64,000 nucleotides of DNA from an uncultured Pseudomonadota bacterium (GCA_903825645.1 CAIKBL010000042.1:117289-181288); one strand, 5' to 3'; numbered from the stretch's first letter, positions 4,365 to 61,243 are shown. The notes: a model not told the origin generated them from the letters alone. A program made the numbers and translations.

Positions 4365-4431
4365 CAGGGACTCTCCCGTGGCGTGCACCGGCGCCCCTTG
4401 GCGCACCGCAGACATCGATTAAATTGAGATC

Positions 4432-5076: not shown

Positions 5077-5105
5077 AATTTTTCCTCGAAAAAAATAAGG
5101 GTGCG

Positions 5106-6338: not shown

Positions 6339-6424
6339 GCACAGCTCCTCGCCCGGAATCGGGCCAATCCCCCCGGGTTCGCGGGAGTGCCGACTTGAAG
6401 GGCGAAACTAATAATCCCATACTC

Positions 6425-6444
6425 GATTTGTCCGAACAAGTTGA
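6425..6444. promoter_or_regulatory. GntR/FadR-type operator-like palindrome GATTTGTCCGAACAAGTTGA
   Basis: TTGTCCGAACAA near-palindrome (the core on which the GT-N-AC FadR/GntR-type consensus is read) in the divergent P450/GntR intergenic region. A near-identical site lies at 11218..11238. Confidence 0.45.
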
Positions 6445-6534
6445 CTTGTGGCGGACGTGATCCCGCCACGCGGGTGCGTGATGGGCGGCCTCGCGCCGCC
6501 CCCCTCTTCTCGTTGTTCGGACAGGAGCCTGCCC

Positions 6535-7323: not shown

Positions 7324-7353
7324 GGCGCCACCCTGACGCTTTCCACGCCCCCA

Positions 7354-23631: not shown

Positions 23632-23837
23632 ACGGCATCCAATCCCGGGTGCGAGGCATACGCTTTGCCGGGAAGTTCGAGCACCGCGCCCGGCGCATCG
23701 CCGTCGGTTCCGACCGCGCGGTTCTCTGCGTACAACGCCGGTTCCGCGCAATTTTTATAAATAAAACAGGGCCTACGCGGGGCGCTATCGATTTCCATGC
23801 ATGGTCTCCGTTCCCCAGTCTGGCGTGGGGGGTCAAT

Positions 23838-42550: not shown

Positions 42551-43246
42551 TTAACCATCCCACTGGTCCCAGTAGGTCACGGTCTCCAGCGGGAGGCGAA
42601 CGGCCGGTTTGAGATCACCACCGGTCAACCAGGCCACTGGCAGCAACGCGGCTTGCGTAAAATCAGCCGGGATCCCGAGCATCTCGCTGATTTCACGTTC
42701 GTAGAGCAGGTGCAACGTTGTCCAGGCGGACGCAATTCTCCGTGCCCGCAGCGCGAGCATGAGGGACCAGGTCGCGGGCAGGATAGAGCCCCACATTGAA
42801 GCCTGGGTAAACACATCGTCCTGCTCGAAACGACCCTCGATACACGGAATAATCATAACCGGCACGCGCTGGAGGTTTTCCATCAGGAAACCACCCGACT
42901 TCATCATCGCCTCGCGCTGCTGCTGACGCAGATCGCTCGAGGCATATTCGCGCATCATCGTCACGCCAGTGCGTGAAAGGCCGGTCTTACCGCCGACATA
43001 CGCCTCGGCGGCGAGACGATAATAATCCGCGATTTTCGCCCGTTTTACGGGATCAGTGATCACCATGAACCGCCAAGTCTGGGTATTCGCACCGGTAGGC
43101 GCCTGGAGCGCGATATCAAGCGCTTCGCGGATGAGCGTGGCAGGGACCGGCCGATCGAGATCGAGTCGACGGCGCACACTGCGGGTGGTTTTCAGAACGT
43201 GATCGACGCTGGCCAGGTCGAACGTGGCGGGCGGTGGCGTTGTCAT
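42551..43246 (-). CDS. nitroreductase-family protein
   Basis: About 231 aa from MTTPPP. Conserved QAPTGANTQTWRF segment. Confidence 0.75.
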   Translation of the reverse strand: MTTPPPATFDLASVDHVLKTTRSVRRRLDLDRPVPATLIREALDIALQAPTGANTQTWRFMVITDPVKRAKIADYYRLAAEAYVGGKTGLSRTGVTMMREYASSDLRQQQREAMMKSGGFLMENLQRVPVMIIPCIEGRFEQDDVFTQASMWGSILPATWSLMLALRARRIASAWTTLHLLYEREISEMLGIPADFTQAALLPVAWLTGGDLKPAVRLPLETVTYWDQWDG

Positions 43247-43295
43247 AGGGTAATCGTCCTTGCGTAGAGAGCGGGGCGCGCGATGACAGGCGCTG

Positions 43296-43784
43296 TCAGG
43301 TTTCCCAGGTGGGTGCATTGGTGTGCTCCCACAGCTGAATCATGTTGCCTTCGGTGTCGTAGAAGAGGAACGAGCGACCAATGCTCGCGCACGGCCACAC
43401 GTACTCGGTCTGCGTCTGGTATCCGGCTTCCCGGACCTTCGTAAACCAACCATCGATATCTTTCACCACCAAGCCCAGTTCGTGGAAGCCGGTGTGGCCA
43501 TAGCGCAGATTCTCGGGCGGCGTTTTCTGGATGTTTGGCATTTCGCATTGCTGTAGCTCAATGAGCGCGCCTTCATCAGACGCCAGCAACACCATCTTGG
43601 AGCGGGCGCCCTTCACCTTGAAGATGTCATCAAGCAGTTCGGGGTACATGAACACCTTGGGCCCGGGCGCAGGACCGTCCGGGATCACGTTGTCCACCAC
43701 CACCTTGAACCCGAGGACATCCCGCCACAACCGGACGGCTTCGGTCATGTCGCTAACAAAAATCGCCATGTGATGAAAATTCAT
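43296..43784 (-). CDS. VOC-family protein
   Basis: 162 aa with glyoxalase-fold pattern (HHMAIFVSD ... GFHELGLVV). Confidence 0.7.
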   Translation of the reverse strand: MNFHHMAIFVSDMTEAVRLWRDVLGFKVVVDNVIPDGPAPGPKVFMYPELLDDIFKVKGARSKMVLLASDEGALIELQQCEMPNIQKTPPENLRYGHTGFHELGLVVKDIDGWFTKVREAGYQTQTEYVWPCASIGRSFLFYDTEGNMIQLWEHTNAPTWET

Positions 43785-43818: not shown

Positions 43819-44733
43819 TCAGGCGAGGCCAAGGTGCGGTTTCACCCACGCCGCGAGTTTCGCAATCGCGTCATCAGCTTCAGGTGCCCGACCTGCCATG
43901 AACTGGAAGACGTGCTGCATTTCAGGGTAGACATCACAGTGGCAGTCCACGCCGGCCGCTTTGGCGCGTTCGGTAAAGCGCAGCGAATCATCCAGCAGTG
44001 CCTCATACCCGCCGACCTGAATGTAAATGGGGGGCAGGCCTTTGCAGTCCGCGTACAGGGGATTGACGAGCGGATCTTTGGGCGACGTCTTGCCGATGTA
44101 CATCTGGACCATGCTGCCGGAGACCGCCGGCGTGACCAGTCGATCGACCTTAGCGTTGGTCGTCATGCTGGCCCCGAGCCCTTCCATGTCGTACCACGGG
44201 GACATCGGCATCAGGGCGGCCGGGAGCGGCAGTTTTTTGTCGCGGGCAGCCAGGACTACCGCCGTGCACAGATTGCCGCCGGCGGAATCGCCCACGGTCG
44301 CAATGTGTGCGGGCTTGATACCCTGTCCGAGCAGCCATTCGTAGGCCTTGAGACAATCACTCACCTGGGTCGGATGTTGTTGCTCCGGCGCGCGGCCGTA
44401 GTCGACGATCAGCGCCCGGCAACCCACCTGCTTAGCAATGTGGGCAAACAGCTTGCGATGGGTAAAACGATCGCCGGTGACACAGCCACCGCCGTGCGCG
44501 GACAGCAGCACGCGATCTTCGCGACACCCTTTGGGCACCGCCCACAGACACGGGATCCCGTCGGCGTCCGCTTCCAGGTAATCCACCCCACCCGGCTCGG
44601 CCGCCAGATCTCCACACTGGCCGAACAGATCGCGCAGAGTGTCGAGCGACATCCCCGGGTCTGCCGTCATGGCGGTAATAAAACTGTCGAACAGGCGATC
44701 AATCGCGGCGGCTTGTGGACTGGCCATGGTCAT
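43819..44733 (-). CDS. alpha/beta hydrolase, HSL-type esterase/lipase
   Basis: HGGG oxyanion motif (SAHGGGC) and GDSAGG nucleophile elbow. Confidence 0.85.
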   Translation of the reverse strand: MTMASPQAAAIDRLFDSFITAMTADPGMSLDTLRDLFGQCGDLAAEPGGVDYLEADADGIPCLWAVPKGCREDRVLLSAHGGGCVTGDRFTHRKLFAHIAKQVGCRALIVDYGRAPEQQHPTQVSDCLKAYEWLLGQGIKPAHIATVGDSAGGNLCTAVVLAARDKKLPLPAALMPMSPWYDMEGLGASMTTNAKVDRLVTPAVSGSMVQMYIGKTSPKDPLVNPLYADCKGLPPIYIQVGGYEALLDDSLRFTERAKAAGVDCHCDVYPEMQHVFQFMAGRAPEADDAIAKLAAWVKPHLGLA

Positions 44734-44869
44734 CTCCCCTCAAATGGTTGGAATAGTCAATTCAGTGGCCGGACTATACGGGGTGTGCACTGCGATGGAG
44801 AAGCACCCGACGCCCTATTTTCGATGCTCGACACTCAACTTTGGCCCGGCACTGCCGCTCCCTTGCAGC

Positions 44870-46135
44870 ATGAAACTCCTGCTCATCGATACCTCCCGCA
44901 CCTTCATGGCCGCCACCCGGCGGGCCTTGGCGGCCGGTATGCCTACACTCGAGATCACCGAATACGACGCTGAGCAGCAGGGTCCGCCGGGCGCTGATTT
45001 CCGCTGGCACGTCTATGGGGCCGCGCTCTTGAGCCATGAACTGGGCGCCGGTCAGACTGGGCTGCAATGGCTGCAGCGCTACCGCGGGGTAGCCGGGTTT
45101 CCGCCCGTGATCTTGTATGCCGCAAGCGGAGATGAATATTTGGCGGTGGCCGCCGTCAAGGCCGGCGCCGAAGATTATCTGCGGCGAGCGGATGTCCCGA
45201 GTGCGCGAACCCTCGAACGCCTGCGGGCCCTAGAAACGCGCCCCAGCGCTGGCGAGCCCTCCCTGCGGCTCGATCATTTCGCGCGCGAAGTGCTCGACTT
45301 CCCGATCGCCCCGGAGGGCCCGGCGATCGAAGCGTCGCCGCATCGTTTCGTGCGACTCATCGGCCAGGGGGGATTCGCCAGTGTCTACCTCGCAGAGCGG
45401 ACGCACGACCGCACCCCGATCGTGCTCAAGATCATCAACACCCAGGAAATACAGGAGCCGGCAGTTGTTCAGCGCTTTATGCGCGAAGCGACTATCGTGG
45501 CCGGCATTGACCATCCTCAAGTGGTCAAAATCTACGAGCAGGGATTCACGCCGGAGTACGGCTTCATCGCCATGGAGTTTTTCCAGCGCGGCGATTTGAA
45601 ACAACGGATGGAGCGCGGCCTGCCCACCGCGCTCGCGGTGGCCTACATGCGTTCGATTGCACTCGGCCTGCGCGCGATCCACGCTCAGCAGATTGTGCAT
45701 CGCGATCTCAAACCCGGGAACATCATGTTCCGCGCGGATGATAGTCTCGCCTTGGCCGATTTCGGTATCTCGAAGCGCCTGGATGATCCCTTGGATCTCA
45801 CCACCCGCTCCGGTCTCATCGGGACGCCGAGTTATTTGAGCCCGGAGCAGGCGCTTGGCGCGCCGACCGATCAGCGCAGCGATCTCTATAGCGCCGGAGT
45901 GATTTTCTACGAGTTACTGACGGGACAAAAACCCTTCCGGGCGGAATCCGCTGCGGCCCTCGTCTATCAGCACGTCCATGCCACACCGCCACGCCTGCCG
46001 GCCACGCTCGCGCCGATTCAGCCGGTGCTGGATCTGCTGCTGGCCAAAGATCCCGCCGATCGCTTCCACTCAGCGGACGAACTGCTCAGCGGTCTCGACG
46101 ACTGGCTGACGCCCGCTTTCCGCCGCGCCGCCTAA
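44870..46135 (+). CDS. Hanks-type Ser/Thr protein kinase with N-terminal degenerate receiver-like domain
   Basis: 421 aa. N-terminal 120 aa resemble a CheY-like receiver, but the phospho-acceptor position is ...ALLSHEL (no Asp). Kinase core HRDLKPGNIM, DFG (ADFGIS), APE-like SPE. Confidence 0.75.
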   Translation: MKLLLIDTSRTFMAATRRALAAGMPTLEITEYDAEQQGPPGADFRWHVYGAALLSHELGAGQTGLQWLQRYRGVAGFPPVILYAASGDEYLAVAAVKAGAEDYLRRADVPSARTLERLRALETRPSAGEPSLRLDHFAREVLDFPIAPEGPAIEASPHRFVRLIGQGGFASVYLAERTHDRTPIVLKIINTQEIQEPAVVQRFMREATIVAGIDHPQVVKIYEQGFTPEYGFIAMEFFQRGDLKQRMERGLPTALAVAYMRSIALGLRAIHAQQIVHRDLKPGNIMFRADDSLALADFGISKRLDDPLDLTTRSGLIGTPSYLSPEQALGAPTDQRSDLYSAGVIFYELLTGQKPFRAESAAALVYQHVHATPPRLPATLAPIQPVLDLLLAKDPADRFHSADELLSGLDDWLTPAFRRAA

Positions 46136-46142: not shown

Positions 46143-47189
46143 TCAGTAGCCGAGATCGCGCGCCGCGCGTGCCAGCACAACGGGCACCGACCAGGCGGTC
46201 CGCGCGAGGCGGATATCCTGGCTGCGACCGCTGGCATAAAGGCCCGAAGCACTCATCCAGAACGCCACCGAGCGCATCGCATAGAGCGCGTTGTAGTAGC
46301 GGCAGGCCGCTTCATCAATGGCAAAACCGGTCGCGGCTTCGTAATCCTTGAAAAAGGCGTCACGGGCGACCAGATTCGAGAGCAAGGGCGTGCCTTCGCG
46401 GTTCAAGTCACTGAGGACGTAAGCCACGTCATACATCGGATCGCCAATGACCTGCAGCTCCCAGTCAAGCACCGCGGAGACGCGATCTTCATGGATAAGG
46501 AGGTTGCCGGTGCGGTAGGCCCCATGCACCAGGGTGAGACGGTCGGTCGCCGGGATATGGGTCTCCAACCAGCCGATGAGATCGGTGAGGATAGGCTCCG
46601 GCGGGGCCTCTGAAAGCGCGATAAGTGCGCGCCACTTGGCGATCTCCCGCCGCGTAAAATCTTCTCCGTTGGCCGGCACGCCCAGAAAATCGAGCCCCGC
46701 CGCGCGCCAGTCAAGGGTATGCAATGTCGCCAAGGTCCCGGTAAAACTGGTCGGCAAGATCGCACGATCCGCAGCCGCCTGATAAAACGCCCGACCCTCA
46801 CGCCCCCAGGGACTTGGGCAGGTTCCCGGGACCTTCTCCATCACCAGGAAAGGCGCGTCCAGAATCGCCGGATCCGCTTCGAACCAATACGCCTTAGGGG
46901 TTGGCAGCGCGGTACTTTCTAGACATTTGAGCACACGGAACTGCTCTTCCAGCGAGGACAGATGGCGCAGCAACGCGTTACCCGGATCGCGCCGCAGACA
47001 GAGTCCGCGCGTGCATGCGGTCCCGGCTTCGCGATACGTGAGATCGAACAACCAGGTTTCGTGCGACCAACCGACGGCAATCCGTTGGACGTCGTGTAGC
47101 GCCAGCGCGCTGGCCTGCGGCATCTGGCGTTTCAAGTAATCGAGAATGCGCGACTGCAGCACTTCGGTGCTATCGGTGGAGCGGCTCAC
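46143..47189 (-). CDS. phosphotransferase (APH/ChoK-like kinase fold) family protein
   Basis: 348 aa. Brenner-type loop LVHGAYRTGNLLI and LDWELQ (DFG-equivalent). GTG start overlapping the upstream stop (GTGA). Confidence 0.75.
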   Translation of the reverse strand: MSRSTDSTEVLQSRILDYLKRQMPQASALALHDVQRIAVGWSHETWLFDLTYREAGTACTRGLCLRRDPGNALLRHLSSLEEQFRVLKCLESTALPTPKAYWFEADPAILDAPFLVMEKVPGTCPSPWGREGRAFYQAAADRAILPTSFTGTLATLHTLDWRAAGLDFLGVPANGEDFTRREIAKWRALIALSEAPPEPILTDLIGWLETHIPATDRLTLVHGAYRTGNLLIHEDRVSAVLDWELQVIGDPMYDVAYVLSDLNREGTPLLSNLVARDAFFKDYEAATGFAIDEAACRYYNALYAMRSVAFWMSASGLYASGRSQDIRLARTAWSVPVVLARAARDLGY

Positions 47190-47602
47190 GCGGCGTACTC
47201 CATGCGCCGGTCGAGGGACCCCCGAAGCGTTTGTCGCACCCGACCGAGCACCTGAGTGAAGCGGACTTCGCCGAGCGCCTCACGGCCCGCATACAGGGCA
47301 GCGATGAAGTGACTCAGGGCGGCCGCGTCGCGGCTTTGCGTCAGCCGTGCGCGTGCGGCATTGACGTCTGCGACCGGTGCACCCGTCGACAACAGCGGCT
47401 CGAGATCCTGCAAGAGCGCATCAAGCGCGACCGTCTCGGCCGCCGTATGGACATCGCTCAGCGCGAGTTGCTGACCGAGCTTCTGCAACACCACACCGGC
47501 CATGAACGCCTGCGTTTTCGGATATTCGGCCTCAATGGCCGGCCCGATCTCCTGACGGAGCGTGCTGGCGATACGTTGCAGGAGTTCACCTTCTGTCATC
47601 AC
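47186..47602 (-). CDS. small hypothetical protein (138 aa), translationally coupled between acyl-CoA synthetase and APH-family gene
   Basis: No recognisable motif. Alpha-helical, Ala/Leu-rich. Stop and start overlaps on both sides. Confidence 0.5.
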   Translation of the reverse strand: MMTEGELLQRIASTLRQEIGPAIEAEYPKTQAFMAGVVLQKLGQQLALSDVHTAAETVALDALLQDLEPLLSTGAPVADVNAARARLTQSRDAAALSHFIAALYAGREALGEVRFTQVLGRVRQTLRGSLDRRMEYAA

Positions 47603-49278
47603 AGCTGTCCTTTGTCGCGTTCGAGACGCATCGGTGCCAGTGTTTTGGCGACCTCGCGCAGTTTGAATTTCTGAATCTTGCCACTCGGCGTCCGCGGAAA
47701 CTCGGCGATCACCTCGAGTCGCTCCGGCCAGTAGGGTTTGATGAGCCCCGCGCTGTCGAGATAGGCGAGCATGCCCGCGAAATCGAGCGTGGTTCCGGGT
47801 TGCAGGGTCACAAAAGCGCAGCCCCGCTCGCCGAGCCTGTCGTCAGGCATGGCGACAATCGCCGCGTCCTGAATCGCCGGATGACGGTAAAGGAGCTCTT
47901 CGACCTCCACGATCGGAATATTTTCGCCGCCACGGATGATGAGATCTTTCGAGCGGCCCGTGATCCGGATATAGCCATCGGCGTCCATACGGGCGTTGTC
48001 GCCGGTCTCGAGCCAACCGTCGGCATCCACCCCGTACGCCTCAGGTCGTTTCAGATAGCCGACGAAGGTCGTCGCGCAGCGGGCCTGCAACCGTCCCTCG
48101 GTGTCCGGTGGGACGCACACCCCCGCCTCATCCACCACACGAACGGCCTGATGGGGCAAGGCGCGGCCATCGGTGTCAATCACCTTGTCGAGCGGATCCC
48201 CCGGATAAGTGGCCGTCGCGATCCCCATTTCGGTCATCCCCCAAGCGCTCATCACATAGAGATTCGGGTGGCGTTCACGCGCGGCCTGGACCAGCACCCG
48301 GGGAATGGGCGCCCCGGCGCAGAGGAATAGTCGCAGACGGGAGAGATCGTAGCCCGCTATCTCCGGTGCATGAACTAAATCACGCAAAAACGGCGTCGAG
48401 CCCAGCGTCAGCGTACAGCCTTCCGCGGTCATGAGCCGCGCGGCGATCGCGGGCTCCCAGATATCCTGCAGCACACACTTGACCCCGTGATACATCGCCA
48501 GCACGGCGGCGTACATGAAGCCCGTCTGATGGGCGAGCGGCGAGCCCATGAAGATCACATCCTCGGCGGTAAAGCCGAACAGCGTCGTCGCAAGTTTGGC
48601 CTTGCACAGCAGCGTGTTGGCCGTGTGCATGACGCCCTTGGGCTCCCCGGTGGTCCCCGAGGTATACATGATCTCAGTGACCTCATCGGGGGTCGGTCGG
48701 CGGGCCGCGAAAAGCGCCGGCACATCGGTTTCGGTTTCCCACGCGCGGTCCAAAACACGACTTTCGAAGGCGCTCGCCGGATCGACTCCCCCCACCACCA
48801 GGATTTCGCGGAGCGCCGGCAAGCGGCTTTGCAGCTCGGCCGCCATCGGCGGGTAGGCGAAACCCCGAAACTCACGGGGCACGATGAGTACCCGCGCCTC
48901 GGCGAGTCCCAGCATGAACTCGAGCTCGCGTGCCCTAAAAATCGGCATCAACGGATTGATGACCGCACCAAGCCGCACACAGGCCGCGTGCAGGGCGGCA
49001 TAGTGCCACCAGTTGGGCAACTGGACGGCGACGACATCTCCGCGTTCCACCCCTAATGCCGCAAGGGCGCAGGCAATGCGAATGGAATGCGCCTGCAACT
49101 CGCGGTAGGTGAGGACGTTGCGCGAACCGTCCATGCTGTTGTGGTCGACGATCGCGACGGCGTCGGGCGTCGACGCCGCCACCGCATCCAGACAATCGAT
49201 GATCAGACGGTCCTGCCATAGGCCCTGGGCGGTCAACTCGGTCCGCCGGGCGGGCGTAATCAGGGGATCAAAATTCAT
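47599..49278 (-). CDS. acyl-CoA synthetase (AMP-forming, FadD-like)
   Basis: 559 aa. AMP-binding motifs TSGTTGEPKGV and a C-terminal invariant Lys region. Confidence 0.9.
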   Translation of the reverse strand: MNFDPLITPARRTELTAQGLWQDRLIIDCLDAVAASTPDAVAIVDHNSMDGSRNVLTYRELQAHSIRIACALAALGVERGDVVAVQLPNWWHYAALHAACVRLGAVINPLMPIFRARELEFMLGLAEARVLIVPREFRGFAYPPMAAELQSRLPALREILVVGGVDPASAFESRVLDRAWETETDVPALFAARRPTPDEVTEIMYTSGTTGEPKGVMHTANTLLCKAKLATTLFGFTAEDVIFMGSPLAHQTGFMYAAVLAMYHGVKCVLQDIWEPAIAARLMTAEGCTLTLGSTPFLRDLVHAPEIAGYDLSRLRLFLCAGAPIPRVLVQAARERHPNLYVMSAWGMTEMGIATATYPGDPLDKVIDTDGRALPHQAVRVVDEAGVCVPPDTEGRLQARCATTFVGYLKRPEAYGVDADGWLETGDNARMDADGYIRITGRSKDLIIRGGENIPIVEVEELLYRHPAIQDAAIVAMPDDRLGERGCAFVTLQPGTTLDFAGMLAYLDSAGLIKPYWPERLEVIAEFPRTPSGKIQKFKLREVAKTLAPMRLERDKGQL

Positions 49279-49336
49279 AGACGCTCACGTTGTCAGCTGC
49301 GGGCATTGAAACGACCATCATTGGGGTCGCGCGCGG

Positions 49337-50287
49337 TCAAGCGGTGCCGGACCGCGCTTCGCGTTGTCGCCTTGCCCAGCGGTGGACCGGCCACATGTCC
49401 TGATCTTCCCCCCAAGCCACGACACCCCCGCCGAGATCCCAGCGGATGAGACTATTGATGTCGATGAAAGTATGGCGGTTCAGGATGATTCGACTGACTG
49501 GCACGCCGATCGCGTGAAGCCGGCGACCCTCGGCGTCTTGGGCCGTCAACGTGATCCGAGTGATCCAGCCCTCGGTCGGATCCCGCTCGACCACTCGCTC
49601 ACCGCCGACGAGCGATACCGTCAGACTGTCCTGTCGCAGGAAGCCGTAGGAAACGGCATCCTGCTCCGGTTTGCCCTGGGTCACGGCCAGAAAGCCCGTT
49701 GCCGCATCAGCAGCACCGGTGATATAAGCCGCCTGACGCGGGCGATCCTCCGGGCGCCGTCCCCAAGTCCGATCGCGCATACCGATGCAGTCGATGGCAA
49801 TGCGCTCGCCGTGCAGCACCAGCGTGCCGGTCACGCGACCGAATTGGTCAAAGTGATGGGCACTGCCGAAAGTCGACCCGACGGCGGTCAGCGGCTCCGG
49901 CGGCATGACCCCTTCGAAGGTAAGATTAGCCTGGAGGCGATCGCCATCCGCGTAGCCCAGGGCATAGCGGTGGCAAGGCTCCAGTACCCGAATGGACACC
50001 CCGTTGGGCAACGTGCAATCGGCAAGATCGAGCGCACGCGAGAGTTGCTGCGCCGAATAATTCGCGGAATAAAGCGCTTCCCACGGCAGATGGGCCTGGT
50101 GGTCCCAGATCCAGACACCGCCGGCGACGGTGCCGATATTGGGACGCACCATCGTATAGAACCAGCCTCCCAGTCGGCGCTCGGGATGGTGGAAAGAAAA
50201 CCATGACGTCTCCGTCGCCCACCAGTCCTCGCCCATTTCGGCGAAATGAAAGTGATCGTCCCGCGCGGTAAATAACTGCGCGCTCAT
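49337..50287 (-). CDS. hypothetical protein (316 aa), possibly lipocalin/CrtC-AttH-like
   Basis: Trp-rich (WWATETSWFSF, GGWFY). No confident family call. ATGA overlap with the SMP-30 gene. Confidence 0.45.
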   Translation of the reverse strand: MSAQLFTARDDHFHFAEMGEDWWATETSWFSFHHPERRLGGWFYTMVRPNIGTVAGGVWIWDHQAHLPWEALYSANYSAQQLSRALDLADCTLPNGVSIRVLEPCHRYALGYADGDRLQANLTFEGVMPPEPLTAVGSTFGSAHHFDQFGRVTGTLVLHGERIAIDCIGMRDRTWGRRPEDRPRQAAYITGAADAATGFLAVTQGKPEQDAVSYGFLRQDSLTVSLVGGERVVERDPTEGWITRITLTAQDAEGRRLHAIGVPVSRIILNRHTFIDINSLIRWDLGGGVVAWGEDQDMWPVHRWARRQREARSGTA

Positions 50288-51231
50288 CGCTGCGCCGCCA
50301 GTGGCAGGCCCGGAACGGGGCTGCGCACATGAACCACATAGTCACTCACCACACTGCCGATGTAGAGATCGCGCATATCCGGGCCACCCCAGCTGACATT
50401 GGTTGGACTGCGCATCAGCACGCCATCGGGATCACTCAGCATCGTCACCACCGTGCCGGCGGGCGTGATCGCGACCACCTTGTTCGACATCACCAGCGTC
50501 ACCCAGAGATTCCCGTCCTGGTCGAACCCACAGCCGTCGGTGGCGCCCAGTTCGCTTCGCAGCGCCGGCGTCAGCGGGCGGCGATCTTGGACCTCATGGT
50601 GCGACAGGCCAAGTTGTGGTCCGTAACGCTCGGGCGCGCCCAGACTGCCATCCGCCAGAATCGGTAACCGCACCACATCGCAAGCCGACGTCTGGCACAC
50701 GAAAAGGTTTTTCTCTGCGGCGTCGAAGGCTATCCCGTTGGCGAATTTTAGGCCTTCGGCGAGCACCGTGGCTTGGCCATCGCCGTCATACCGAAAGATG
50801 CTGCCGTCATCGAGCCCATCGAAGGCGGCGCTGACGGGGCCGAAGGTCGAATGTGAGCACCACACGCGCCCGCGCGAATCGACAAGCGGATAATTCGCGC
50901 CGAAAAGCGCGCGACCGTTAAGCGCAGCGCAGAGCGTCGTGACTTCCCCGGTGCGGGGATCAAGACGTTGCAGGGGACCGACACCGTCTTCCGGTCCACC
51001 GAAGTTCGCGATAAGCACCCGTCCCTCGAGATCGAGATTGATGCCGTTGGGGGCACCCCCGGCGCGGCCGACACGATCGATACCGCCATCGGGTCGTACT
51101 CGGGCGCAAGCGCTGGCCTGGTCGGAAATCCAGACCGTGCCATCCCGCGCGACGGCCACATCTTCCGGCCGTTTGACCCCGACGCCGACCTTACGGCAAT
51201 CGGTAAGCCTGAGCGTTTTGAGTAGGCTCAC
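50284..51231 (-). CDS. SMP-30/gluconolactonase/LRE-family protein (six-bladed propeller lactonase-type hydrolase)
   Basis: 315 aa. Repeated propeller-blade motifs (PEDVAVARDGTVWISD, PNGINLDLEGRVLIAN). Confidence 0.8.
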   Translation of the reverse strand: MSLLKTLRLTDCRKVGVGVKRPEDVAVARDGTVWISDQASACARVRPDGGIDRVGRAGGAPNGINLDLEGRVLIANFGGPEDGVGPLQRLDPRTGEVTTLCAALNGRALFGANYPLVDSRGRVWCSHSTFGPVSAAFDGLDDGSIFRYDGDGQATVLAEGLKFANGIAFDAAEKNLFVCQTSACDVVRLPILADGSLGAPERYGPQLGLSHHEVQDRRPLTPALRSELGATDGCGFDQDGNLWVTLVMSNKVVAITPAGTVVTMLSDPDGVLMRSPTNVSWGGPDMRDLYIGSVVSDYVVHVRSPVPGLPLAAQR

Positions 51232-51261
51232 ACGGGGCTCCTTAGGGTTCGTGTCCGGGTT

Positions 51262-52032
51262 TTAGGGGTAATGGGGGGTGCGTTTCTCGCGGAACGCCGC
51301 CACACCCTCGGCAAAATCAGCCCCGGCCCGCACACGATCGCCCTGTGCCTGTTCGGCCGCCTCACGCGCCAGGGTGGCGAGCGCGACGCCCTCGCTGACA
51401 TGCTGTTTGACAGCCTGCACGGCGACCGGGCTGTTGGCCGCGATGACGGTCGCCAAATCGATCGCCCGTTGGAGCAAGCTATCCGCCGGGACTATCTCGT
51501 TGATGAGTCCAATGCGCAGCGCTTCGTTAGCGTCAATCATCTCAGCGGACAGGATGAGTCGCATCGCGTGCACATAATTAATCTGGCTGAAGAGCTTGGC
51601 AGTTGCCCCGCCGAAGGGGTAAATACCCCACTTGACTTCGGGCAACCCAAAGCGCGCGTGCGGCGCTGCAAACCGGATATCGGAGGCCAGCATGAGCTCT
51701 ACCCCGCCGCCCGCACACACGCCATTAATGGCGGTGATGATGGGTTTCGGATAAGCCGAGGTCTTCAGCAACGAGCGGTTGACCATGCGCGCGGTCTCCT
51801 CGCTGGCGCTCAAATCGCCGCTAATATCGGCCCCCGCGTTGAACGCCTTGTCACCGGCACCGGTTAACACGATGCAGCGACAGCTGGAGGTTTCAAGCTG
51901 ATCCCACAGCCCACAGAGCTCGGCCATCATCGCCCTGCTCATGGCGTTGCGTTTGGCCGGATTGTCGATGGTGAGCAGGGCGACGTGTGGGTGCGGAAAG
52001 TCGATCAGGATCGGCATACTCGAATTCCTCAA
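51262..52032 (-). CDS. enoyl-CoA hydratase/isomerase (crotonase) family protein
   Basis: 256 aa. Oxyanion-hole region LTGAGDKAFNAGADI. Confidence 0.85.
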   Translation of the reverse strand: MRNSSMPILIDFPHPHVALLTIDNPAKRNAMSRAMMAELCGLWDQLETSSCRCIVLTGAGDKAFNAGADISGDLSASEETARMVNRSLLKTSAYPKPIITAINGVCAGGGVELMLASDIRFAAPHARFGLPEVKWGIYPFGGATAKLFSQINYVHAMRLILSAEMIDANEALRIGLINEIVPADSLLQRAIDLATVIAANSPVAVQAVKQHVSEGVALATLAREAAEQAQGDRVRAGADFAEGVAAFREKRTPHYP

Positions 52033-52156
52033 AAGATGGGTCCAATCAGGACCGCGGCTGTCATTGCTGTGCGCCCGCCCCAGCCTGCTGGCGGGGGCGT
52101 CGAACCGGACGCGCAGTTTACACGCAAGTCCGGGCGCTGTTCGAACCTCGACCGGC

Positions 52157-53335
52157 TTAGCCGATCGCGCCTGCCTGGGTCAACGCGGCGATGTCCTGTG
52201 CCGTCCCGCCAATCGACTCCAGCACCTCGACGGTATGTTCGCCCAAGGCCGGCGAAGGTCGCCGGACCGTGCACGGCTCGCCGGCAAAAATGGCGGGCGC
52301 CCGTGCCTGGCGCATGCGGCCACCTTGCGGGTGATCGTATTCGATGATGCTGTCGCGATGACGCACGCGCGGATCCGTACAGACTTCATCCAGCGAATTC
52401 GCTTTGGCACACGGCACATCTTCCTCCAGGAGACGGGCGATGAGTGCATCACTCCCGAGATGCCGAGCCGCCTGCTCAAAGGCCGCGTGCATATCCGAGT
52501 AATTGGCAAAGCGATCTGAAAGGGACTTGAAGCGCGGATCGCCCAACAGAGACTCCAGGCCGAGGGCCCGACAGGCGCCGGCGAACTCCCCGTCACCGAC
52601 GATGATGATCATGATGAACCCATCGGCCGTGCGAAGCAGTCGATAGAACTCAGCGATCGTCGGCTTATTGGTCACCCCTTCGGTCCCGACAAAGCCATGG
52701 TTCCAGAACACTTCGGGCCAGAGGAAGGCAAGACTGGCATCCAGCATGGAGAGTTCAACATGATGTCCGCCCGCCCCACGGGTACGGGCGAACAGCGCGG
52801 CGGTGATCGCCTGCGCCGCGGTGAGCGCCGCGACCTTGTCGCTGGCGATGGTTTTCATCAGCGCCGGATCACCACCCGTGCCCTGGGCCGCCGCAAATCC
52901 TGCGACACATTGAATAACGGGATCGTAGACCCGTTGTCGGGCCCCGGGGCCGGTAGCGCCGAACCCGGAAATCGAGACATAGATGAGATTGGGGTTCACC
53001 TGGTGCAGCGCCTCATACCCGTAACCCGCCCGTTCAAGCGCACCGGGCCGAGAATTCTGTACAAACACATCCGCCGATTCGATCAGCCGGTAAATCCAAG
53101 GGCGTACCGCGGCGCTCTTCAGATCGACCGCCATCGAGCGCTTGTTCCGGTTCATGTAGGCACTGTAGGACGAGACCCCACCGCGGGTACCGCCGACATG
53201 CCGGGACGGATCGCCCGAACCTATCGGCTCCAAGCGAATCACGTCCGCCCCTTGATCGGCGAGCATGCCGACCGCCATGGGTCCCGAGGCATTGCTCGTC
53301 GCGTCGATGATCCGGATCCCCGTTAATGGCTCCAT
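52157..53335 (-). CDS. CoA-transferase family III (CaiB/BaiF-like)
   Basis: 392 aa. GIRIIDATSNASGPMAVGMLADQGADVI N-terminus typical of family III. Confidence 0.85.
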   Translation of the reverse strand: MEPLTGIRIIDATSNASGPMAVGMLADQGADVIRLEPIGSGDPSRHVGGTRGGVSSYSAYMNRNKRSMAVDLKSAAVRPWIYRLIESADVFVQNSRPGALERAGYGYEALHQVNPNLIYVSISGFGATGPGARQRVYDPVIQCVAGFAAAQGTGGDPALMKTIASDKVAALTAAQAITAALFARTRGAGGHHVELSMLDASLAFLWPEVFWNHGFVGTEGVTNKPTIAEFYRLLRTADGFIMIIIVGDGEFAGACRALGLESLLGDPRFKSLSDRFANYSDMHAAFEQAARHLGSDALIARLLEEDVPCAKANSLDEVCTDPRVRHRDSIIEYDHPQGGRMRQARAPAIFAGEPCTVRRPSPALGEHTVEVLESIGGTAQDIAALTQAGAIG

Positions 53336-53444
53336 GCTGACCTCTTTTCAGATGTGTAGACGGGGCTGCAGAATCGCGCCCCTTGCAATTGAACAGCACA
53401 TTAACCGCGCCTCCGCCGGAAGGCTAGCCACCGGCGGCGCTGAC

Positions 53445-54539
53445 TCAGGCGGCTTTCGCAATCTGCTGATTGATACGCGGCATGACTTCTTCGGCCATGA
53501 GACGCATCGAGTGGCGCATCGCGGTCCGGTCCTGCCAATCATGGGCCGCGTAGAGGAGCGTCCCGAAATCGCCGACCCGATCGCGCAGGCCTAAAAGCTT
53601 GGCGGCCACCGTCTCGGGACTGCCGTAAATGACGCACGCGTCGCGAATCTGCTGGTGATCCAGCTGCCTCGGATCATCGCCTTCCCGGGCGACGAAAGGG
53701 GCACGGTAATTCGTACGATCGAAAATCTTGAACAGATAATCGAAATAGTAGTCGTACGCGCCGCCCGGCGCCCGCACAAACGCTTCGGCTTGCGCGTCGG
53801 TGTCCGCCACGAAAATGCTGCGGGCGACATGCCAATCCGCGGACTTCGGTGTGTAGCCGGTACTCGCGGCGCCCGCGAGGTAGGTAGGCCAATGCGTCTT
53901 CAGGACCCACTCGGCAATAAAATTCGCGGAGACCGGCATATAGCCGTGTGCGCCCGCATAGCGGATGGAACCCGAGGATGGACTCATCGCCGACATGGCA
54001 ATCGGCGGATGCGGCTGCTGAAGCGGCTTCGGCACATACCCCATCTTGATGTCATGGTGGGTCCATTGGGTCATGTCGCTCGACCAGTACTTGCCCTTGA
54101 GCTGATACGGGGGATCCGTGGTCCAAAGCGCCAAGATTTGCTGCAGGGACTCCTCGACCATTTCGGTGCGGTTCTGACCCATCACGCCGAAGAGCTCGAA
54201 ATCCGAAGGCAGACCGCCCGGGCCCACACCCATGATGAAACGCCCCTGGCTGAGGTGGTCAAACATCGCCGCCTGGCCGGCGATCACGGCAGGATGGTAT
54301 TGCGGCAGACACATCACCCCGGTCGCAAATTTGATTTGCTTGGTCCGTGCGATGAGATTCGCGTGGAACAGGAGCGGGGAGGTGATTTGCTCGACCGCTG
54401 CCGAGTAATGTTCGCCCACCCAGGCTTCGGTAAAGCCTAATTCATCGGCGTACACCACCGCCTCGACATCGTCCTGCAGCGTCTGGTGATAGGCGCTGTC
54501 TGCGTGATGCAGCGGCATCATGAAATACCCTAAGTGCAT
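53445..54539 (-). CDS. LLM-class flavin-dependent oxidoreductase
   Basis: 364 aa luciferase-like (LGFTEAWVGEHYS). Confidence 0.8.
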   Translation of the reverse strand: MHLGYFMMPLHHADSAYHQTLQDDVEAVVYADELGFTEAWVGEHYSAAVEQITSPLLFHANLIARTKQIKFATGVMCLPQYHPAVIAGQAAMFDHLSQGRFIMGVGPGGLPSDFELFGVMGQNRTEMVEESLQQILALWTTDPPYQLKGKYWSSDMTQWTHHDIKMGYVPKPLQQPHPPIAMSAMSPSSGSIRYAGAHGYMPVSANFIAEWVLKTHWPTYLAGAASTGYTPKSADWHVARSIFVADTDAQAEAFVRAPGGAYDYYFDYLFKIFDRTNYRAPFVAREGDDPRQLDHQQIRDACVIYGSPETVAAKLLGLRDRVGDFGTLLYAAHDWQDRTAMRHSMRLMAEEVMPRINQQIAKAA

Positions 54540-54596
54540 AAAGATCCTCCGCGCACGACCTCGTGCCTGATTGATGAAAAGTCCCGCTCCCCGGCC

Positions 54597-55289
54597 TCAG
54601 ACATGGAACGACGCCCACGCCTCCAGCGGTGCGCGCTCGGTACGCAAGCTGTTTTCGACGGCCGCCGAATCCTCGTAGCCGAGGGAAAGCCCGCACAGTA
54701 CCTGCTCGTTATCCGGCAATTGCAGACTCGCTGCAATCACCCGTTGAAACTGGGCAAAGGCAAACTGCGGGCAGGTGTGCAACCCGCGCGCACGCGCCGC
54801 CGTCATGAGATTACCCATAAAAAGACCGTAGTCCACCCAGGCGGCATAACCGAAACTGCGATCGACGGTAAAAATCATGCCGACCGGGGCATCAAAAAAC
54901 TGGAAATTGCGCGCGTGCTGCGCGTGCGTCCGGGCGTGCTCACCCTTGCCGATCCCCAACAGGCCGTAGAGATCCCAACCGACCTTGCGACGCCGGTCAA
55001 GGTAGGGCGACACCCATGCCGAGGGATAAATCGAAAATTCGCTTTGATGTTGGGGCAGCGCCTCAGGATCGTTGAAGACCTGAAGGATGGCGCTGGAGAG
55101 GCGCGTCTTGGCCGCCCCTGTCACCACGTGTACCAGCCAGGGCTGGGTATTGGTGCCCGACGCCGCACGGGCCGCCACCCTCAGTAATTCCTCGACCGTC
55201 GCCTGCGGCACGGGGGTCGGCAGGAAGGCGCGCACCGAGCGCCGGGAAATGATGGCCTCATCAACCGGATTGGGGGCAGCAGCGTCCAT
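54597..55289 (-). CDS. nitroreductase-family protein
   Basis: About 230 aa from MDAAAPNP. IISRRSVRAF and SGTNTQPW motifs. Confidence 0.75.
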   Translation of the reverse strand: MDAAAPNPVDEAIISRRSVRAFLPTPVPQATVEELLRVAARAASGTNTQPWLVHVVTGAAKTRLSSAILQVFNDPEALPQHQSEFSIYPSAWVSPYLDRRRKVGWDLYGLLGIGKGEHARTHAQHARNFQFFDAPVGMIFTVDRSFGYAAWVDYGLFMGNLMTAARARGLHTCPQFAFAQFQRVIAASLQLPDNEQVLCGLSLGYEDSAAVENSLRTERAPLEAWASFHV

Positions 55290-55536: not shown

Positions 55537-56127
55537 ATGTTCTTCAAGGTCTATGACGATCTCGTACCCGAGTGGCTGCAAGCGCATTACCAGTTATCGA
55601 TACTGGGCCGATCCGATGGTCATGCCCTGCACCCCACCGTTGATTTTCGCTGCAAGTACGAGGACACCGCGTTGGATAGCCGTGGAGAGCCCCCCATGTC
55701 TTTCTATCACGTGCTGAAATCCAGCGCGGCCAACTCGGTGCATTTCGATAGTTTTTATGAAATCCCGCGCTTGTTCTGCCGCGCCGAGAACCTCGTGCTG
55801 CAAGAGCTCCTGGCCGCGCGCATTTACTTGATCATGCCGTACGCGACGGAATTGCGTCACTATGCGCCGCATATCGACTTTCCGGTACCGCACACGGTGC
55901 TGCTCTACTATGTCAATGACGCGGATGGCAACACTGTGTTTTTCAACAAGAAAAAAGAAGTCGTCGAGGAAGTCCAGCCGAAAAAAGGCCGACTGCTCGC
56001 CTTCGACGGGACGGTCTACCATGGTGGGGGGATCCCCCGGACGGGTCCGCGCTGCGTGGTCAACTACAACCTCATCTGCCATGCCCGGCCACCGCCTGGC
56101 CAGGCCCCGAATCCCGCCGCCCGGTAG
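55537..56127 (+). CDS. small putative Fe(II)/2OG-oxygenase-like protein
   Basis: 196 aa. Candidate HxD (YAPHID) and distal His (VYHGGG). GC content visibly lower than neighbours. Confidence 0.4.
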   Translation: MFFKVYDDLVPEWLQAHYQLSILGRSDGHALHPTVDFRCKYEDTALDSRGEPPMSFYHVLKSSAANSVHFDSFYEIPRLFCRAENLVLQELLAARIYLIMPYATELRHYAPHIDFPVPHTVLLYYVNDADGNTVFFNKKKEVVEEVQPKKGRLLAFDGTVYHGGGIPRTGPRCVVNYNLICHARPPPGQAPNPAAR

Positions 56128-58490: not shown

Positions 58491-60764
58491 TTACGCCTTC
58501 GCCTTCTGCAGCGCCGACAGCAACCGAGGGGGCGAGATCGGCAGATCATTCACCCGCACGCCACTGGCACGCGCCACCGCATTCGCCACCGCGGCAAGCG
58601 GGGGCACGATCGGCACTTCGCCGACACCACGCACCCCAAACGGATGGGTGGGGTTCGGGACTTCCACTATAACGGTGTCAATCATCGGCAAATCGGAGGC
58701 CACGGGCATCCGGTAGTCGAGGAAGCCGGCATTCTGCATTTGCCCCTGCTCGCTGTAGACATACTCTTCGTTCAGCGCCCAGCCAATGCCCTGGACCGCG
58801 CCGCCTTGCATCTGGCCTTCGACATAGGACGGATGAATTGCACGCCCCACGTCCTGGACGACCGTGTAGCGCACCACCGAAGTACGGCCGGTTTCCGGAT
58901 CGACTTCCACATCACAGATATGGGTGCCGAACGCAGCCCCTGCGCCGCCCACATTGAGCGCCGCCTTGCCGGTGATGGGTCCGCCTGTCCGCGCCGCACT
59001 GGCGGCGATTTCAGCCAGCGAAAGCTGGGTACGGGCATCCGTCTGGCCCTGCGCGGGATAGGCCACGCCGTCTTTCCAGATGACATCCTCGATACCGCAT
59101 TTCCAGAGCTTCGCCGCGCGGGCACGGAGCTGCTCGACGATGTCGTTAGCGGCTTCACAAACTGCCTTGCCGGTGGCAAACGTCACCCGGCTACCCCCCG
59201 TCAGGAAGGTGTAGCCGATCGAGGCGGTATCGCCGACCAGCGGCTTGACCTTGGCCAGATCGATACCGAGCACTTCTGCCGCCATCATCGCCATGGAAGC
59301 GCGCGAGCCGCCGATGTCCGGGCTACCGGTCACAACTTCCGCGGTGCCGTCTTCATTGATGTGAATTGCGGCGGTCGATTGACCTCCGATGTTGAACCAG
59401 AAACCCGACGCCACGCCGCGGCCCTGATTGGCCTTGAGTGGGGCGCTATAGTGCGGATGGGCCTTGGCCGCTTCAAGGGTCTCAACGAAACCGATGATCG
59501 GGAACTTCGGGCCGTAAAGGGCACGGGTCCCTTCCTTCGCCGCGTTCTTCAGACGCAAGGCCAACGGATCCATGCCAAGCTCAATGGCGAGCTCATCCAG
59601 CGCGGATTCCACAGCAAAGCTCGAAATCGGGGCGCCTGGCGCCCGATAGGCCGCACATTTGGCGCGGTTCGAAACGACGTCGTAGCCGACGGCTTTGGCA
59701 TTCGCCATGTCGTACGGGGCAAACGCTGTCATGCAACCCGGGACCGCCGGCGAGCCCGGGAAGGCGCCCGCCTGGTAGGCCAGCTCCAGCGATCCAGCAA
59801 CCAACGTACCGTCACGCTTGGCACCGATTTTGACCGTCATGTGGGCACCCGAAGTCGGGCCACTGGCGCGGAACACTTCGTCCCGTGACATCACCAGCTT
59901 GACCGGCTTACCCGTCTTACGGGAAAGCGCGACCGCGAGGGGTTCGAGATAAACCGTGGTCTTGCCACCGAAGCCACCACCGATTTCAGCGGGGATGACG
60001 CGCAGTTGGGCATCTTCAAGATGGAGCAGCTTGGCGCAGAACTCACGGATCATGAACTGACCCTGGCTGCTGCACCAAATAGTCGTCATGCCATCCGCCG
60101 CCATGCTGGCGATCGCCGCGTGCGGCTCGATGTAGCCCTGATGGACCGGCTGCGTGGTGTATTCGCGTTCGATCACAACATCAGAGTCTTTGAAGCCCTG
60201 CTCCACATCACCCATGTTGAATTCGGTACGGGCCGCGATGTTCGACGCTTTGGTCGGCTTCGGCTCAACGCCACTGGTGATCATGTCTTCATGCAGGATC
60301 GGCGCGTCGGGACGCATGGCCGCGCGGACGTCGATGACGTGCGGGAGCACTTCATAGTCGACGGTGATGAGCGCCAGCGCCGCTTCTGCGATGCTCGCAC
60401 TGATGGCGGCAACGGCCGCAACCGACTGGCCTTCGTAGAGCGCCTTGTGCCGGGCAATGACGTTCTCGGAGATGTGCCGATAGTTGACGGGCGATTCACC
60501 GCCGGCCACCACTTCGGACGGCAGTTCGGGGAAATCGGCGGCGGTGATGACCGCACGCACGCCCGGGAGGGCAAGGGCGCGCGAGGCATCAATCGACTTG
60601 ATGCGGGCATGGGCGTGGGGGCTGCGCAGCACCCGACCGGCCAACATGCCCGGCAACGTGAAGTCTGCACCGTAATTCGCCTGACCCGTGACTTTGTCCA
60701 CACCATCCGGACGCACCGGACGCGTGCCGACCCATTTAAATTGTTGTTTACCTTCATTACCCAT
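58491..60764 (-). CDS. xanthine dehydrogenase family molybdopterin-binding large subunit (CoxL/aldehyde oxidoreductase-like)
   Basis: 757 aa from MGNEGKQQFKWVG. MoCo-binding domains. GGAG RBS inside the upstream gene's end. Confidence 0.9.
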   Translation of the reverse strand: MGNEGKQQFKWVGTRPVRPDGVDKVTGQANYGADFTLPGMLAGRVLRSPHAHARIKSIDASRALALPGVRAVITAADFPELPSEVVAGGESPVNYRHISENVIARHKALYEGQSVAAVAAISASIAEAALALITVDYEVLPHVIDVRAAMRPDAPILHEDMITSGVEPKPTKASNIAARTEFNMGDVEQGFKDSDVVIEREYTTQPVHQGYIEPHAAIASMAADGMTTIWCSSQGQFMIREFCAKLLHLEDAQLRVIPAEIGGGFGGKTTVYLEPLAVALSRKTGKPVKLVMSRDEVFRASGPTSGAHMTVKIGAKRDGTLVAGSLELAYQAGAFPGSPAVPGCMTAFAPYDMANAKAVGYDVVSNRAKCAAYRAPGAPISSFAVESALDELAIELGMDPLALRLKNAAKEGTRALYGPKFPIIGFVETLEAAKAHPHYSAPLKANQGRGVASGFWFNIGGQSTAAIHINEDGTAEVVTGSPDIGGSRASMAMMAAEVLGIDLAKVKPLVGDTASIGYTFLTGGSRVTFATGKAVCEAANDIVEQLRARAAKLWKCGIEDVIWKDGVAYPAQGQTDARTQLSLAEIAASAARTGGPITGKAALNVGGAGAAFGTHICDVEVDPETGRTSVVRYTVVQDVGRAIHPSYVEGQMQGGAVQGIGWALNEEYVYSEQGQMQNAGFLDYRMPVASDLPMIDTVIVEVPNPTHPFGVRGVGEVPIVPPLAAVANAVARASGVRVNDLPISPPRLLSALQKAKA

Positions 60765-60766
60765 GA

Positions 60767-61243
60767 CTATGCACTCCTCATGACTGCGGCGGCCTTCTGG
60801 ACCGCGCGGACGATTTTGTCGTAACCCGTACACCGGCACAGATTGCCGGCCAACCAGAATCGGATCTCTTCTTCACTGGGATCAGCATTTTCCTCCAGCA
60901 GGGCTTTGGCCGCCACGATGATCCCGGGGGTGCAGATCCCGCATTGCAATGCGGCTTCATTCAAAAATACCTGCTGCAAAGGATGCAGTACGCCGGCCTT
61001 GGCGACACCTTCGATGGTCTCGACAGCGGCGCCGTTCAGCTCGGCACCCAGAACCAGGCAGGCACAGACCAGACGACCATCGACACGAACGCTGCACGCG
61101 CCGCAGTCACCGGAGCCGCAGCCCTCTTTCGAGCCCGTCAGACCAAGCTCGTCGCGCAGTACGTCGAGCAGGGTTTGCTCGGTCTCGCACAGGAACTCGG
61201 TCGGATCGCCATTAACCGTCAGACTGATGTGATGTTTGCTCAT
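60767..61243 (-). CDS. (2Fe-2S)-binding small subunit (CoxS-like)
   Basis: 158 aa. Plant-type CGSGDCGAC cluster and a second CxxC...CRCTGY cluster. Confidence 0.9.
   Translation of the reverse strand: MSKHHISLTVNGDPTEFLCETEQTLLDVLRDELGLTGSKEGCGSGDCGACSVRVDGRLVCACLVLGAELNGAAVETIEGVAKAGVLHPLQQVFLNEAALQCGICTPGIIVAAKALLEENADPSEEEIRFWLAGNLCRCTGYDKIVRAVQKAAAVMRSA

Follow-up and report, generated by a model that had tools for sequence, protein, structure and literature searches.

The gene cluster

We analysed a 64,000-nucleotide stretch of DNA from an uncultured Pseudomonadota bacterium (GCA_903825645.1, CAIKBL010000042.1:117289-181288), referred to as the window, with positions counted from its first letter. 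An open reading frame (ORF) scan combined with Pfam and NCBIfam family calls revealed a cluster of nine co-directional minus-strand ORFs spanning 46143-55289/55379. Three of the encoded proteins, namely a DUF7065 protein, a small protein without a family assignment and a protein of the aminoglycoside phosphotransferase (APH) fold, form a unit which is conserved in multiple bacterial lineages and which may dehydrate hydroxyacyl-coenzyme A (hydroxyacyl-CoA) substrates by phosphorylation and elimination. The genes of this unit are:

46143..47189, minus strand: APH-fold, kinase-like protein of the LvaA/ACAD10-11 clade, 348 aa (Pfam APH PF01636, 3e-30)
47186..47599, minus strand: small all-helical partner protein of 137 aa, counted from its ATG, with translational coupling to both neighbouring genes
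49337..50287, minus strand: DUF7065 protein, 316 aa, with an AttH/CrtC double-beta-barrel fold; candidate phosphate-eliminating lyase

We regard all nine genes of the cluster as real because they have strong family matches or, in the case of the small protein, 225 homologue clusters. Public gene calls on identical metagenomic contigs match ours and place the nitroreductase start at 55289 (230 aa) and the length of the crotonase at 251 aa. A preliminary description of this DNA had listed the same nine genes and families, and the Pfam and NCBIfam assignments together with the public gene calls bear this out at the coordinates given here. Its unknown protein of 138 aa indeed has no match at threshold in Pfam or NCBIfam, but is 137 aa long when counted from its ATG. 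The same description had spoken of a nine-gene translationally coupled operon with four stop/start overlaps. We count three, an ATGA between the lactonase and DUF7065 genes, a TGATG (1 nt) between the ligase and small-protein genes and a GTGA between the small-protein and APH genes, while the other intergenic gaps measure 30, 57, 58, 109 and 139 nt. The clustering of real genes therefore stands, but with only three overlaps and gaps of up to 139 nt, translational coupling of the whole cluster was overstated. Scans of the cluster for promoters and terminators did not reveal more sites than were found in shuffled sequence.

A conserved unit of three proteins

A scan for the small protein in 185,579 species genomes gave at least 157 positive genomes. 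Our synteny counts are based on the 80 loci returned, against which all nine window proteins were compared by tblastn. Clustering of the neighbouring ORFs was carried out on 82 non-redundant loci; since ORF clusters 6 and 8 turned out to be spurious antisense ORFs which depress the counts of the real genes, the tblastn counts are used instead. Most of the hosts are uncultivated Gammaproteobacteria, Candidatus Binatia and Acidimicrobiia, and the sole cultured isolate among the 80 loci is Vineibacter terrae (CC-CFT640); none of these loci comes from Pseudomonas.

The association of the small protein with an APH gene, already pointed out in the preliminary description, holds in 74 of 75 assessable loci, in each of which the APH gene lies immediately downstream of the small-protein gene. 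The third constant member is DUF7065, which is encoded on the same strand within 3 kb in 61 of the 63 loci that could be assessed, and which had previously been set aside as a Trp-rich unknown. The acyl-CoA ligase, which had been taken for the third partner in its place, is adjacent upstream in 23/30 Proteobacteria-type loci but in neither the Binatia-type (0/22) nor the Acidimicrobiia-type loci (0/11). Likewise, a lactonase is found upstream in 15/28, 1/22 and 0/11 loci of these three types, respectively. Three gene orders were observed: DUF7065-ligase-small-APH, (lactonase or BVMO)-DUF7065-small-APH, where BVMO denotes a Baeyer-Villiger monooxygenase, and small-APH-DUF7065. The invariant unit across Proteobacteria-, Binatia- and Acidimicrobiia-type genomes is DUF7065, the small protein and the APH-fold protein. 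L081 and L083 are the only two assessable loci in which DUF7065 is not beside the small/APH pair: in the former it is absent within 8 kb, and in the latter it lies 6 kb off on the opposite strand together with a lactonase.

The other six genes of the cluster and a nearby esterase gene, which are accessory or lineage-specific, are:

47599..49278, minus strand: acyl-CoA ligase, 559 aa (AMP-binding, 8e-79), closest to cyclohexanecarboxylate-CoA ligase
50284..51231, minus strand: SMP-30/gluconolactonase-type (SGL) lactonase, 315 aa (SGL, 1e-28), a frequent accessory
51262..52017, minus strand: crotonase/enoyl-CoA hydratase, 251 aa (ECH_1, 4.5e-53), a lineage-specific neighbour
52157..53335, minus strand: family III CoA-transferase (CoA_transf_3, 2.6e-100), a lineage-specific neighbour
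53445..54539, minus strand: luciferase-like (LLM) oxidoreductase (Bac_luciferase, 4.8e-49), a lineage-specific neighbour
54597..55289, minus strand: nitroreductase-family flavoprotein, 230 aa from its ATG (Nitroreductase, 2.9e-31), a lineage-specific neighbour
43819..44733, minus strand: accessory esterase of the Abhydrolase_3 family (Abhydrolase_3, 1.2e-53)

The ligase scores 668 bits with the NCBIfam model TIGR03208, which is under its cut-off of 792, and is 32% identical to LvaE. The complete nine-gene order recurs in L079 (about 74-83% identity; 57% for the small protein) and partly in L011, and is thus restricted to close relatives. The four upstream genes, encoding nitroreductase, LLM oxidoreductase, CoA-transferase and crotonase, are missing from most related loci. 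Crotonase orthologues of at least 63% identity were found in about six loci (L007/L067, L011, L060, L079 and L088); among the 80 loci, those of the CoA-transferase are confined to L011 and L079 and those of the LLM oxidoreductase and the nitroreductase to L079.

Two characterised systems, LvaAB/LvaC and ACAD10/11, phosphorylate 4-hydroxyacyl-CoAs and then eliminate the phosphate by means of a flavin-dependent acyl-CoA dehydrogenase (ACAD) (PMC6692424, PMC12440821). The cluster had accordingly been described as an LvaAB-style kinase for 4- or 5-hydroxyacyl-CoAs built on the ligase, the small protein and the kinase, in which the crotonase or the LLM oxidoreductase would eliminate and the Trp-rich protein would have no role. 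The homology of the kinase to LvaA and ACAD11, the translational coupling of the ligase, small-protein and APH genes in the window and the presence of crotonase and LLM genes upstream are in agreement with such a system. However, neither proposed eliminating enzyme is conserved with the module, as the crotonase occurs in about six loci and the LLM oxidoreductase in one compared to 61/63 for DUF7065. Moreover, no Binatia-type or Acidimicrobiia-type locus has the ligase, and the conserved neighbours include no flavin-dependent equivalent of LvaC, which makes this explanation highly improbable. As noted before, the cluster itself contains no ACAD gene according to Pfam, the nearest being 17 kb away; a short-chain dehydrogenase/reductase (SDR) gene was not found in it either.

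The APH-fold protein

In searches against the PDB, the APH-fold protein matched 3dxp (1.4e-27), the kinase domain of ACAD11 (4.5e-23) and 9fsg (1.6e-18), as well as 9o56 and Rv3168. The ACAD11 alignment covers the kinase domain only (residues 63-255). We take 9fsg to be probably 25-HSK, an unconfirmed assignment based on its name and on the neighbouring PDB codes. The lva system was represented in our comparisons by a complete P. aeruginosa plasmid operon; its lvaB gene carries the annotation '4-hydroxypentanoyl-CoA kinase subunit LvaB'. The APH-fold protein aligns with LvaA over its full length, with 29% identity over 327 aa and an E-value of 1e-33 in BLASTP and 102.7 bits in phmmer. The proposed relation of the kinase to LvaA and ACAD10/11 is thereby corroborated.

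Proteins of this fold also include resistance enzymes, and an aminoglycoside or macrolide phosphotransferase sitting by chance among metabolic genes would give weak NCBIfam matches of the kind that we observed to APH(3') and Mph models. These matches are far under the cut-offs, with 42.6 bits versus 205 for APH(3') and about 17-20 versus at least 550 for the Mph models, and we rejected a resistance function on these grounds. Such a function is barely credible also in view of the closest relatives, which are those of the ACAD10/11 and LvaA clade, of the invariant synteny with DUF7065 and the small protein and of the missing catalytic Asp (see Discussion).

The small partner protein

A large protein database yielded 198 homologues of the small protein, about 137 aa long and all of them unnamed. 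The 225 homologue clusters, with a mean column identity of about 62%, stem from a profile search that covered 1.84 billion representatives exhaustively. The AlphaFold model of the small protein is a confidently predicted helical bundle with a predicted local distance difference test (pLDDT) score of 92.6 and has only generic structural matches.

LvaB, the small subunit of the lva kinase, belongs to Pfam DUF6285. Comparison of the small protein with LvaB/DUF6285 by hhalign gave a weak similarity (E-values of 4e-4 to 1e-3, probability 22-34%), in which the N-terminal 67 columns align in register, among them a Met that never varies in the LvaB family and hardly varies among the small proteins. 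Of the sub-threshold Pfam matches of the small-protein family, DUF6285 is by far the most frequent, being found for 15 of 47 members with a best E-value of 0.0016. In reciprocal hidden Markov model searches, 35/239 and 45/116 sequences scored above 10 bits, compared to none of the reversed or shuffled decoys, whose maximum was 8.4. The small protein had no match to an LvaB model in NCBIfam, where LvaB itself also remained without a match. Furthermore, the LvaB profile did not match the small protein encoded on a Variovorax plasmid (see below), and no bridge to LvaB by intermediate sequences was obtained. Overall, the small protein is a probable remote homologue of LvaB, a counterpart that had been suggested before: the similarity exceeds that of decoys, but is weak and sub-threshold.

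DUF7065 as a candidate lyase

The DUF7065 protein passes the Pfam DUF7065 cut-off (38.3 bits versus 27) and fails that of NCBIfam Rv3169_fam (47.1 versus 150). Among the three core proteins it shows the highest conservation, the identity being 73-85% for the 120 closest of its homologue clusters listed. The AlphaFold model (pLDDT 83) shows a double beta-barrel of the AttH/CrtC type, and its best Foldseek match is 25-phosphosteroid lyase (25-PSL), with an E-value of 3.7e-13 at 15-17% identity. When the DUF7065 profile was compared with all PDB sequences, 25-PSL again ranked top with a non-significant E-value of 0.1, followed by two unrelated lipid-binding proteins at about 0.6. The alignment of DUF7065 with 25-PSL pairs F-x-Q-x-G...G-x-R-D-R-[ST]-W-G-x-R-P, so that both have the motif RDRxWGxRP in common; in the window protein, the corresponding M-R-D172-R-T-W-G-R-R-P is invariant. 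The Asp of this motif, equivalent to D172, is presumably catalytic in 25-PSL, and it is an Asn in the complex of 25-PSL with product and phosphate (9g4c). A literature search found no paper on the structure of 25-PSL, on DUF7065 or on DUF6285.

Because of its resemblance to 25-PSL, DUF7065 appears to be the most plausible eliminating enzyme of the system, rather than an ACAD, the crotonase or the LLM oxidoreductase. In Sterolibacterium denitrificans, the APH-family kinase 25-HSK and subsequently 25-PSL dehydrate a tertiary alcohol in an ATP-dependent manner (PMC8449060, PMC11061730). By analogy, we consider this pair, and not LvaC or ACAD10/11, as the closest counterpart for the elimination step.

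Comparison with known systems

The 25-HSK/25-PSL system likewise consists of an APH-family and an AttH-fold protein and follows the logic that we propose here, namely to phosphorylate a non-oxidisable alcohol and to eliminate the phosphate to an alkene. In the window and its relatives, however, the corresponding genes lie next to each other and a third, small protein is obligatory, whereas in S. denitrificans no lyase candidate lies near the kinase gene (PMC8449060). The metabolic context also differs, with steroid side chains there and lactone, ester and acyl-CoA metabolism here. Mo-dependent C25/C26 hydroxylases, which belong to the steroid context, were not found in the window, whose only Mo enzyme is of the xanthine-dehydrogenase type.

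With the lva system, the window shares an LvaA homologue, a small helical protein whose gene overlaps the kinase gene by stop and start codons and an acyl-CoA synthetase within the cluster. In contrast to lva, the order is reversed, with the small gene preceding the kinase gene as stated in the preliminary description, and the small protein stays under the Pfam DUF6285 threshold. Instead of the LvaC-type ACAD and the LvaD reductase, neither of which is found in the cluster or among the recurrent neighbours, an AttH-fold protein is encoded. ACAD10 and ACAD11 have a homologous kinase domain and the same concept of phosphorylation and elimination on a hydroxyacyl-CoA, but there the kinase is fused to an ACAD, while here it is a stand-alone protein of 348 aa without a fused or neighbouring ACAD. 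A further locus, L091 on the Acinetobacter pittii plasmid pApiHUM1c, encodes an SDR, an ACAD, an APH-fold kinase and a crotonase in a row (3885-7676) without a small-protein gene, an arrangement which resembles lva and ACAD10-11 without LvaB.

A pairing of APH-fold and DUF7065-type proteins as in the window is also seen in Mycobacterium tuberculosis with Rv3168 (PDB 3ATS) and Rv3169 (DUF7064/7065), whose genes are presumably adjacent, judging from their locus numbering. More distant, complete triads are present on two plasmids of cultured bacteria. In L092 (Variovorax sp. SRS16 plasmid 3, 2290-6475), a 373-aa DUF7065-like protein, an APH protein and a 156-aa small protein are encoded; two APH genes, two small-protein genes and one DUF7065-like gene follow each other in a row and are preceded by a fatty-acid-CoA ligase gene. 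The 373-aa and small proteins match the window DUF7065 and small-protein profiles with an hhalign probability of 92-93%. L093 from a Rhodococcus opacus plasmid (4983-7535) encodes an APH protein, a small protein of 126 aa and a DUF7065-like protein of 381 aa; the small protein has no detectable similarity to the profiles of the window small protein or of LvaB. The gene order of both triads is unlike that of the window, and their kinases keep HGD/HAD at the catalytic site. The window APH-fold protein scores 181 and 154 bits with the Variovorax and Rhodococcus kinases, respectively, compared to 103 with LvaA. Since the plasmid triad kinases retain the Asp and are closer than LvaA, the triad architecture appears to be older and broader than the window family, and the change from Asp to Ala appears to be derived within that family.

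Neighbouring genes

In the 82 non-redundant loci, a BVMO gene is present within 8 kb in 30 cases. It is co-directional and just upstream of the trio in most BVMO-bearing Binatia-type loci, and convergent and downstream in L001 and Vineibacter. Between BVMO and DUF7065, at least eight Binatia loci carry a further gene (e.g. 6544-6975 in L035), whose product of 143 aa has a predicted signal peptide. Acidimicrobiia-type loci have a divergent CoA-transferase or ligase paralogue.

The window esterase is 66-77% identical to esterases encoded directly 3' of the APH gene in L010, L023, L065, L079, L081 and L083. In the window, a gene for a eukaryotic-type Ser/Thr protein kinase (44795-46135, plus strand; ORF 44639-46135; Pkinase 8.8e-47) lies between the APH and esterase genes, convergent to the former, and looks like an insertion into the module. 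On the other side, a small gene of the 2-oxoglutarate-Fe(II) oxygenase family (55537-56127, plus strand) is divergent from the cluster. In L001, the same oxygenase gene is found divergent upstream of the lactonase gene and the four upstream window genes are absent, which suggests that these four genes were inserted between the oxygenase and lactonase genes. Other catabolic genes of the window encode an acyl-CoA dehydrogenase (28747-29913, minus strand), two SDRs and a P450 (38517-41563, plus strand), a second nitroreductase paralogue (42551-43318, minus strand) and the xanthine-dehydrogenase-type molybdenum hydroxylase with its FAD subunit (58491-62106, minus strand).

The neighbourhoods also bear on the question of whether the trio is biosynthetic, i.e. 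whether it performs an ATP-activated dehydration or cyclisation, as the Diels-Alderase relatives CghA and Fsa2 do, on the way to a small natural product. The adenylate-forming enzyme encoded next to it speaks for such a role. The neighbours are nevertheless catabolic (BVMO, lactonase, esterase, crotonase, CoA-transferase, transporters, amidohydrolases and a Rieske oxygenase), and no genes for polyketide synthases, nonribosomal peptide synthetases or terpene synthases were seen in the neighbourhoods viewed, so that we consider a biosynthetic role quite improbable.

Discussion

Our analysis points, with moderate confidence, to a function of the trio in dehydrating, in an ATP-dependent manner, a lactone- or ester-derived hydroxyacyl-CoA, which would first be phosphorylated and then undergo elimination. 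In the proposed pathway, a BVMO, which is module-adjacent in many relatives, would form a lactone or ester, and the lactonase or the nearby esterase would open it to the hydroxy acid. The AliA-like CoA ligase or a CoA-transferase would then generate the hydroxyacyl-CoA. Acting as an LvaAB-like two-subunit kinase, the APH/small pair would move a phosphate from ATP onto the hydroxyl group and yield a phospho-ester. The target would be a hydroxyl that is neither oxidisable nor directly beta-eliminable, carried by the hydroxy acid or, more likely, by the CoA thioester. DUF7065 would eliminate the phosphate, as 25-PSL does after 25-HSK, to give a C=C bond and hence an unsaturated acyl-CoA, and the crotonase would hand this alkene product to beta-oxidation. 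We infer the chemistry, i.e. the phosphorylation, the identity of its acceptor, the formation of a complex, the elimination and every substrate, from the homologies, fold and synteny described above. The route from lactone to hydroxy acid, CoA ester, phospho-ester and elimination, which had been put forward in the preliminary description, is coherent because genes for lactonases, esterases, BVMOs and CoA-activating enzymes are found repeatedly near the module.

Several observations weigh against this pathway. Most importantly, the catalytic loop of the APH-fold protein reads V-H-G-A224-Y-R-T-G-N229 (HGAYRTGN), compared to HRDYRTGN in LvaA; the YRTGN part is common to both, but Ala replaces the catalytic Asp. 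This Ala (A224) is found in 58 of 59 orthologues, whereas LvaA, 3dxp, 9o56, 9fsg (the probable, unconfirmed 25-HSK) and the Variovorax and Rhodococcus triad kinases all retain the Asp. The engineered ACAD11 mutant D220A has been reported to be kinase-dead (PMC12440821), and the natural window sequence matches this mutant at the catalytic residue, as does the top-scoring ACAD11 entry, 8v3u, a chain which carries Ala at this position. Classical base-assisted O-phosphorylation is therefore doubtful, and three options are left: transfer that is independent of a base, a residue contributed in trans or a function as a pseudokinase. In addition, the likeness of the small protein to LvaB is weak and under every significance threshold, and since the ligase is not universal, a CoA thioester is less secure as the substrate. 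Finally, the window does contain a BVMO gene, as had been described (22168-23751, minus strand), but it lies 24 kb off. With about 33% identity, its product is not orthologous to the module-linked BVMOs, and we rejected it as a partner of the module. This BVMO is 59% identical to one BVMO in L026, and its gene is adjoined by that of a thiolase-like protein (20593-22140, minus strand).

The missing Asp raises the alternative of an APH-fold protein that does not act as a classical kinase. It could be a pseudokinase which, together with the small protein, binds the substrate or presents it to DUF7065, or it could transfer phosphate or a nucleotide to a group for which a general base is dispensable, e.g. 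a carboxylate, an enolate or phosphate. DUF7065 would then, like other AttH-fold proteins, function as a hydratase, dehydratase, cyclase or decarboxylase-like enzyme. The near-invariant Ala, its contrast with LvaA, the solved relatives and the plasmid triads and the dead ACAD11 mutant all argue in this direction. However, the Mg ligands N229 and D242 and the nucleotide motifs are invariant, and so are 37% of all positions in the orthologue alignment, which indicates very strong constraint and is atypical for degenerate pseudokinases. Moreover, among characterised proteins both Foldseek and profile searches place a phosphate lyase nearest to the partner protein, and related triads carry canonical kinases. 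We thus regard a non-classical APH-fold protein as possible, though on the doubtful side.

A related and unlikely, but more far-reaching idea is that the Asp-less APH-fold protein, the small protein and the AttH-fold protein constitute a previously unknown type of enzyme complex, which would catalyse phosphoryl or nucleotidyl transfer without a canonical base or would contain a pseudokinase that presents the substrate. The base may be supplied in trans, or the acceptor may be a non-alcohol such as a carboxylate or an enolate; in the pseudokinase form, the protein may be a subunit of a lyase or cyclase. If this is true, uncultivated Gammaproteobacteria, Binatia and Acidimicrobiia would harbour new chemistry that follows Baeyer-Villiger oxidation.

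Compared to the preliminary description, the observations were thus confirmed in part and the interpretation was partly supported; the Asp-less active site and the 25-HSK/25-PSL analogue had been missed. The kinase clade and the logic of phosphorylation followed by elimination are already known. What is new is the combination of a kinase-like protein, a small partner and a phospho-lyase-like protein, which is uncharacterised and widely distributed.

Tertiary and remote alcohols, which can neither be oxidised nor beta-eliminated, block the breakdown of terpenoids, alicyclic compounds and Baeyer-Villiger products. To our knowledge, only three phosphorylate-then-eliminate solutions to this problem have been described, namely LvaAB/LvaC, ACAD10/11 and 25-HSK/25-PSL. 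If the pathway proposed here is correct, the DUF7065 module would be a fourth, in which a two-subunit kinase of the LvaAB type is hybridised with a lyase of the 25-PSL type. Vineibacter terrae CC-CFT640 and the canonical-kinase triads on the Variovorax and Rhodococcus plasmids provide experimental entry points, and the natural lack of the Asp in the catalytic loop raises a well-defined question of mechanism. Moreover, the proposed pathway would assign functions that can be tested to DUF7065 and to the 137-aa family without a Pfam model, both of which are orphan families.

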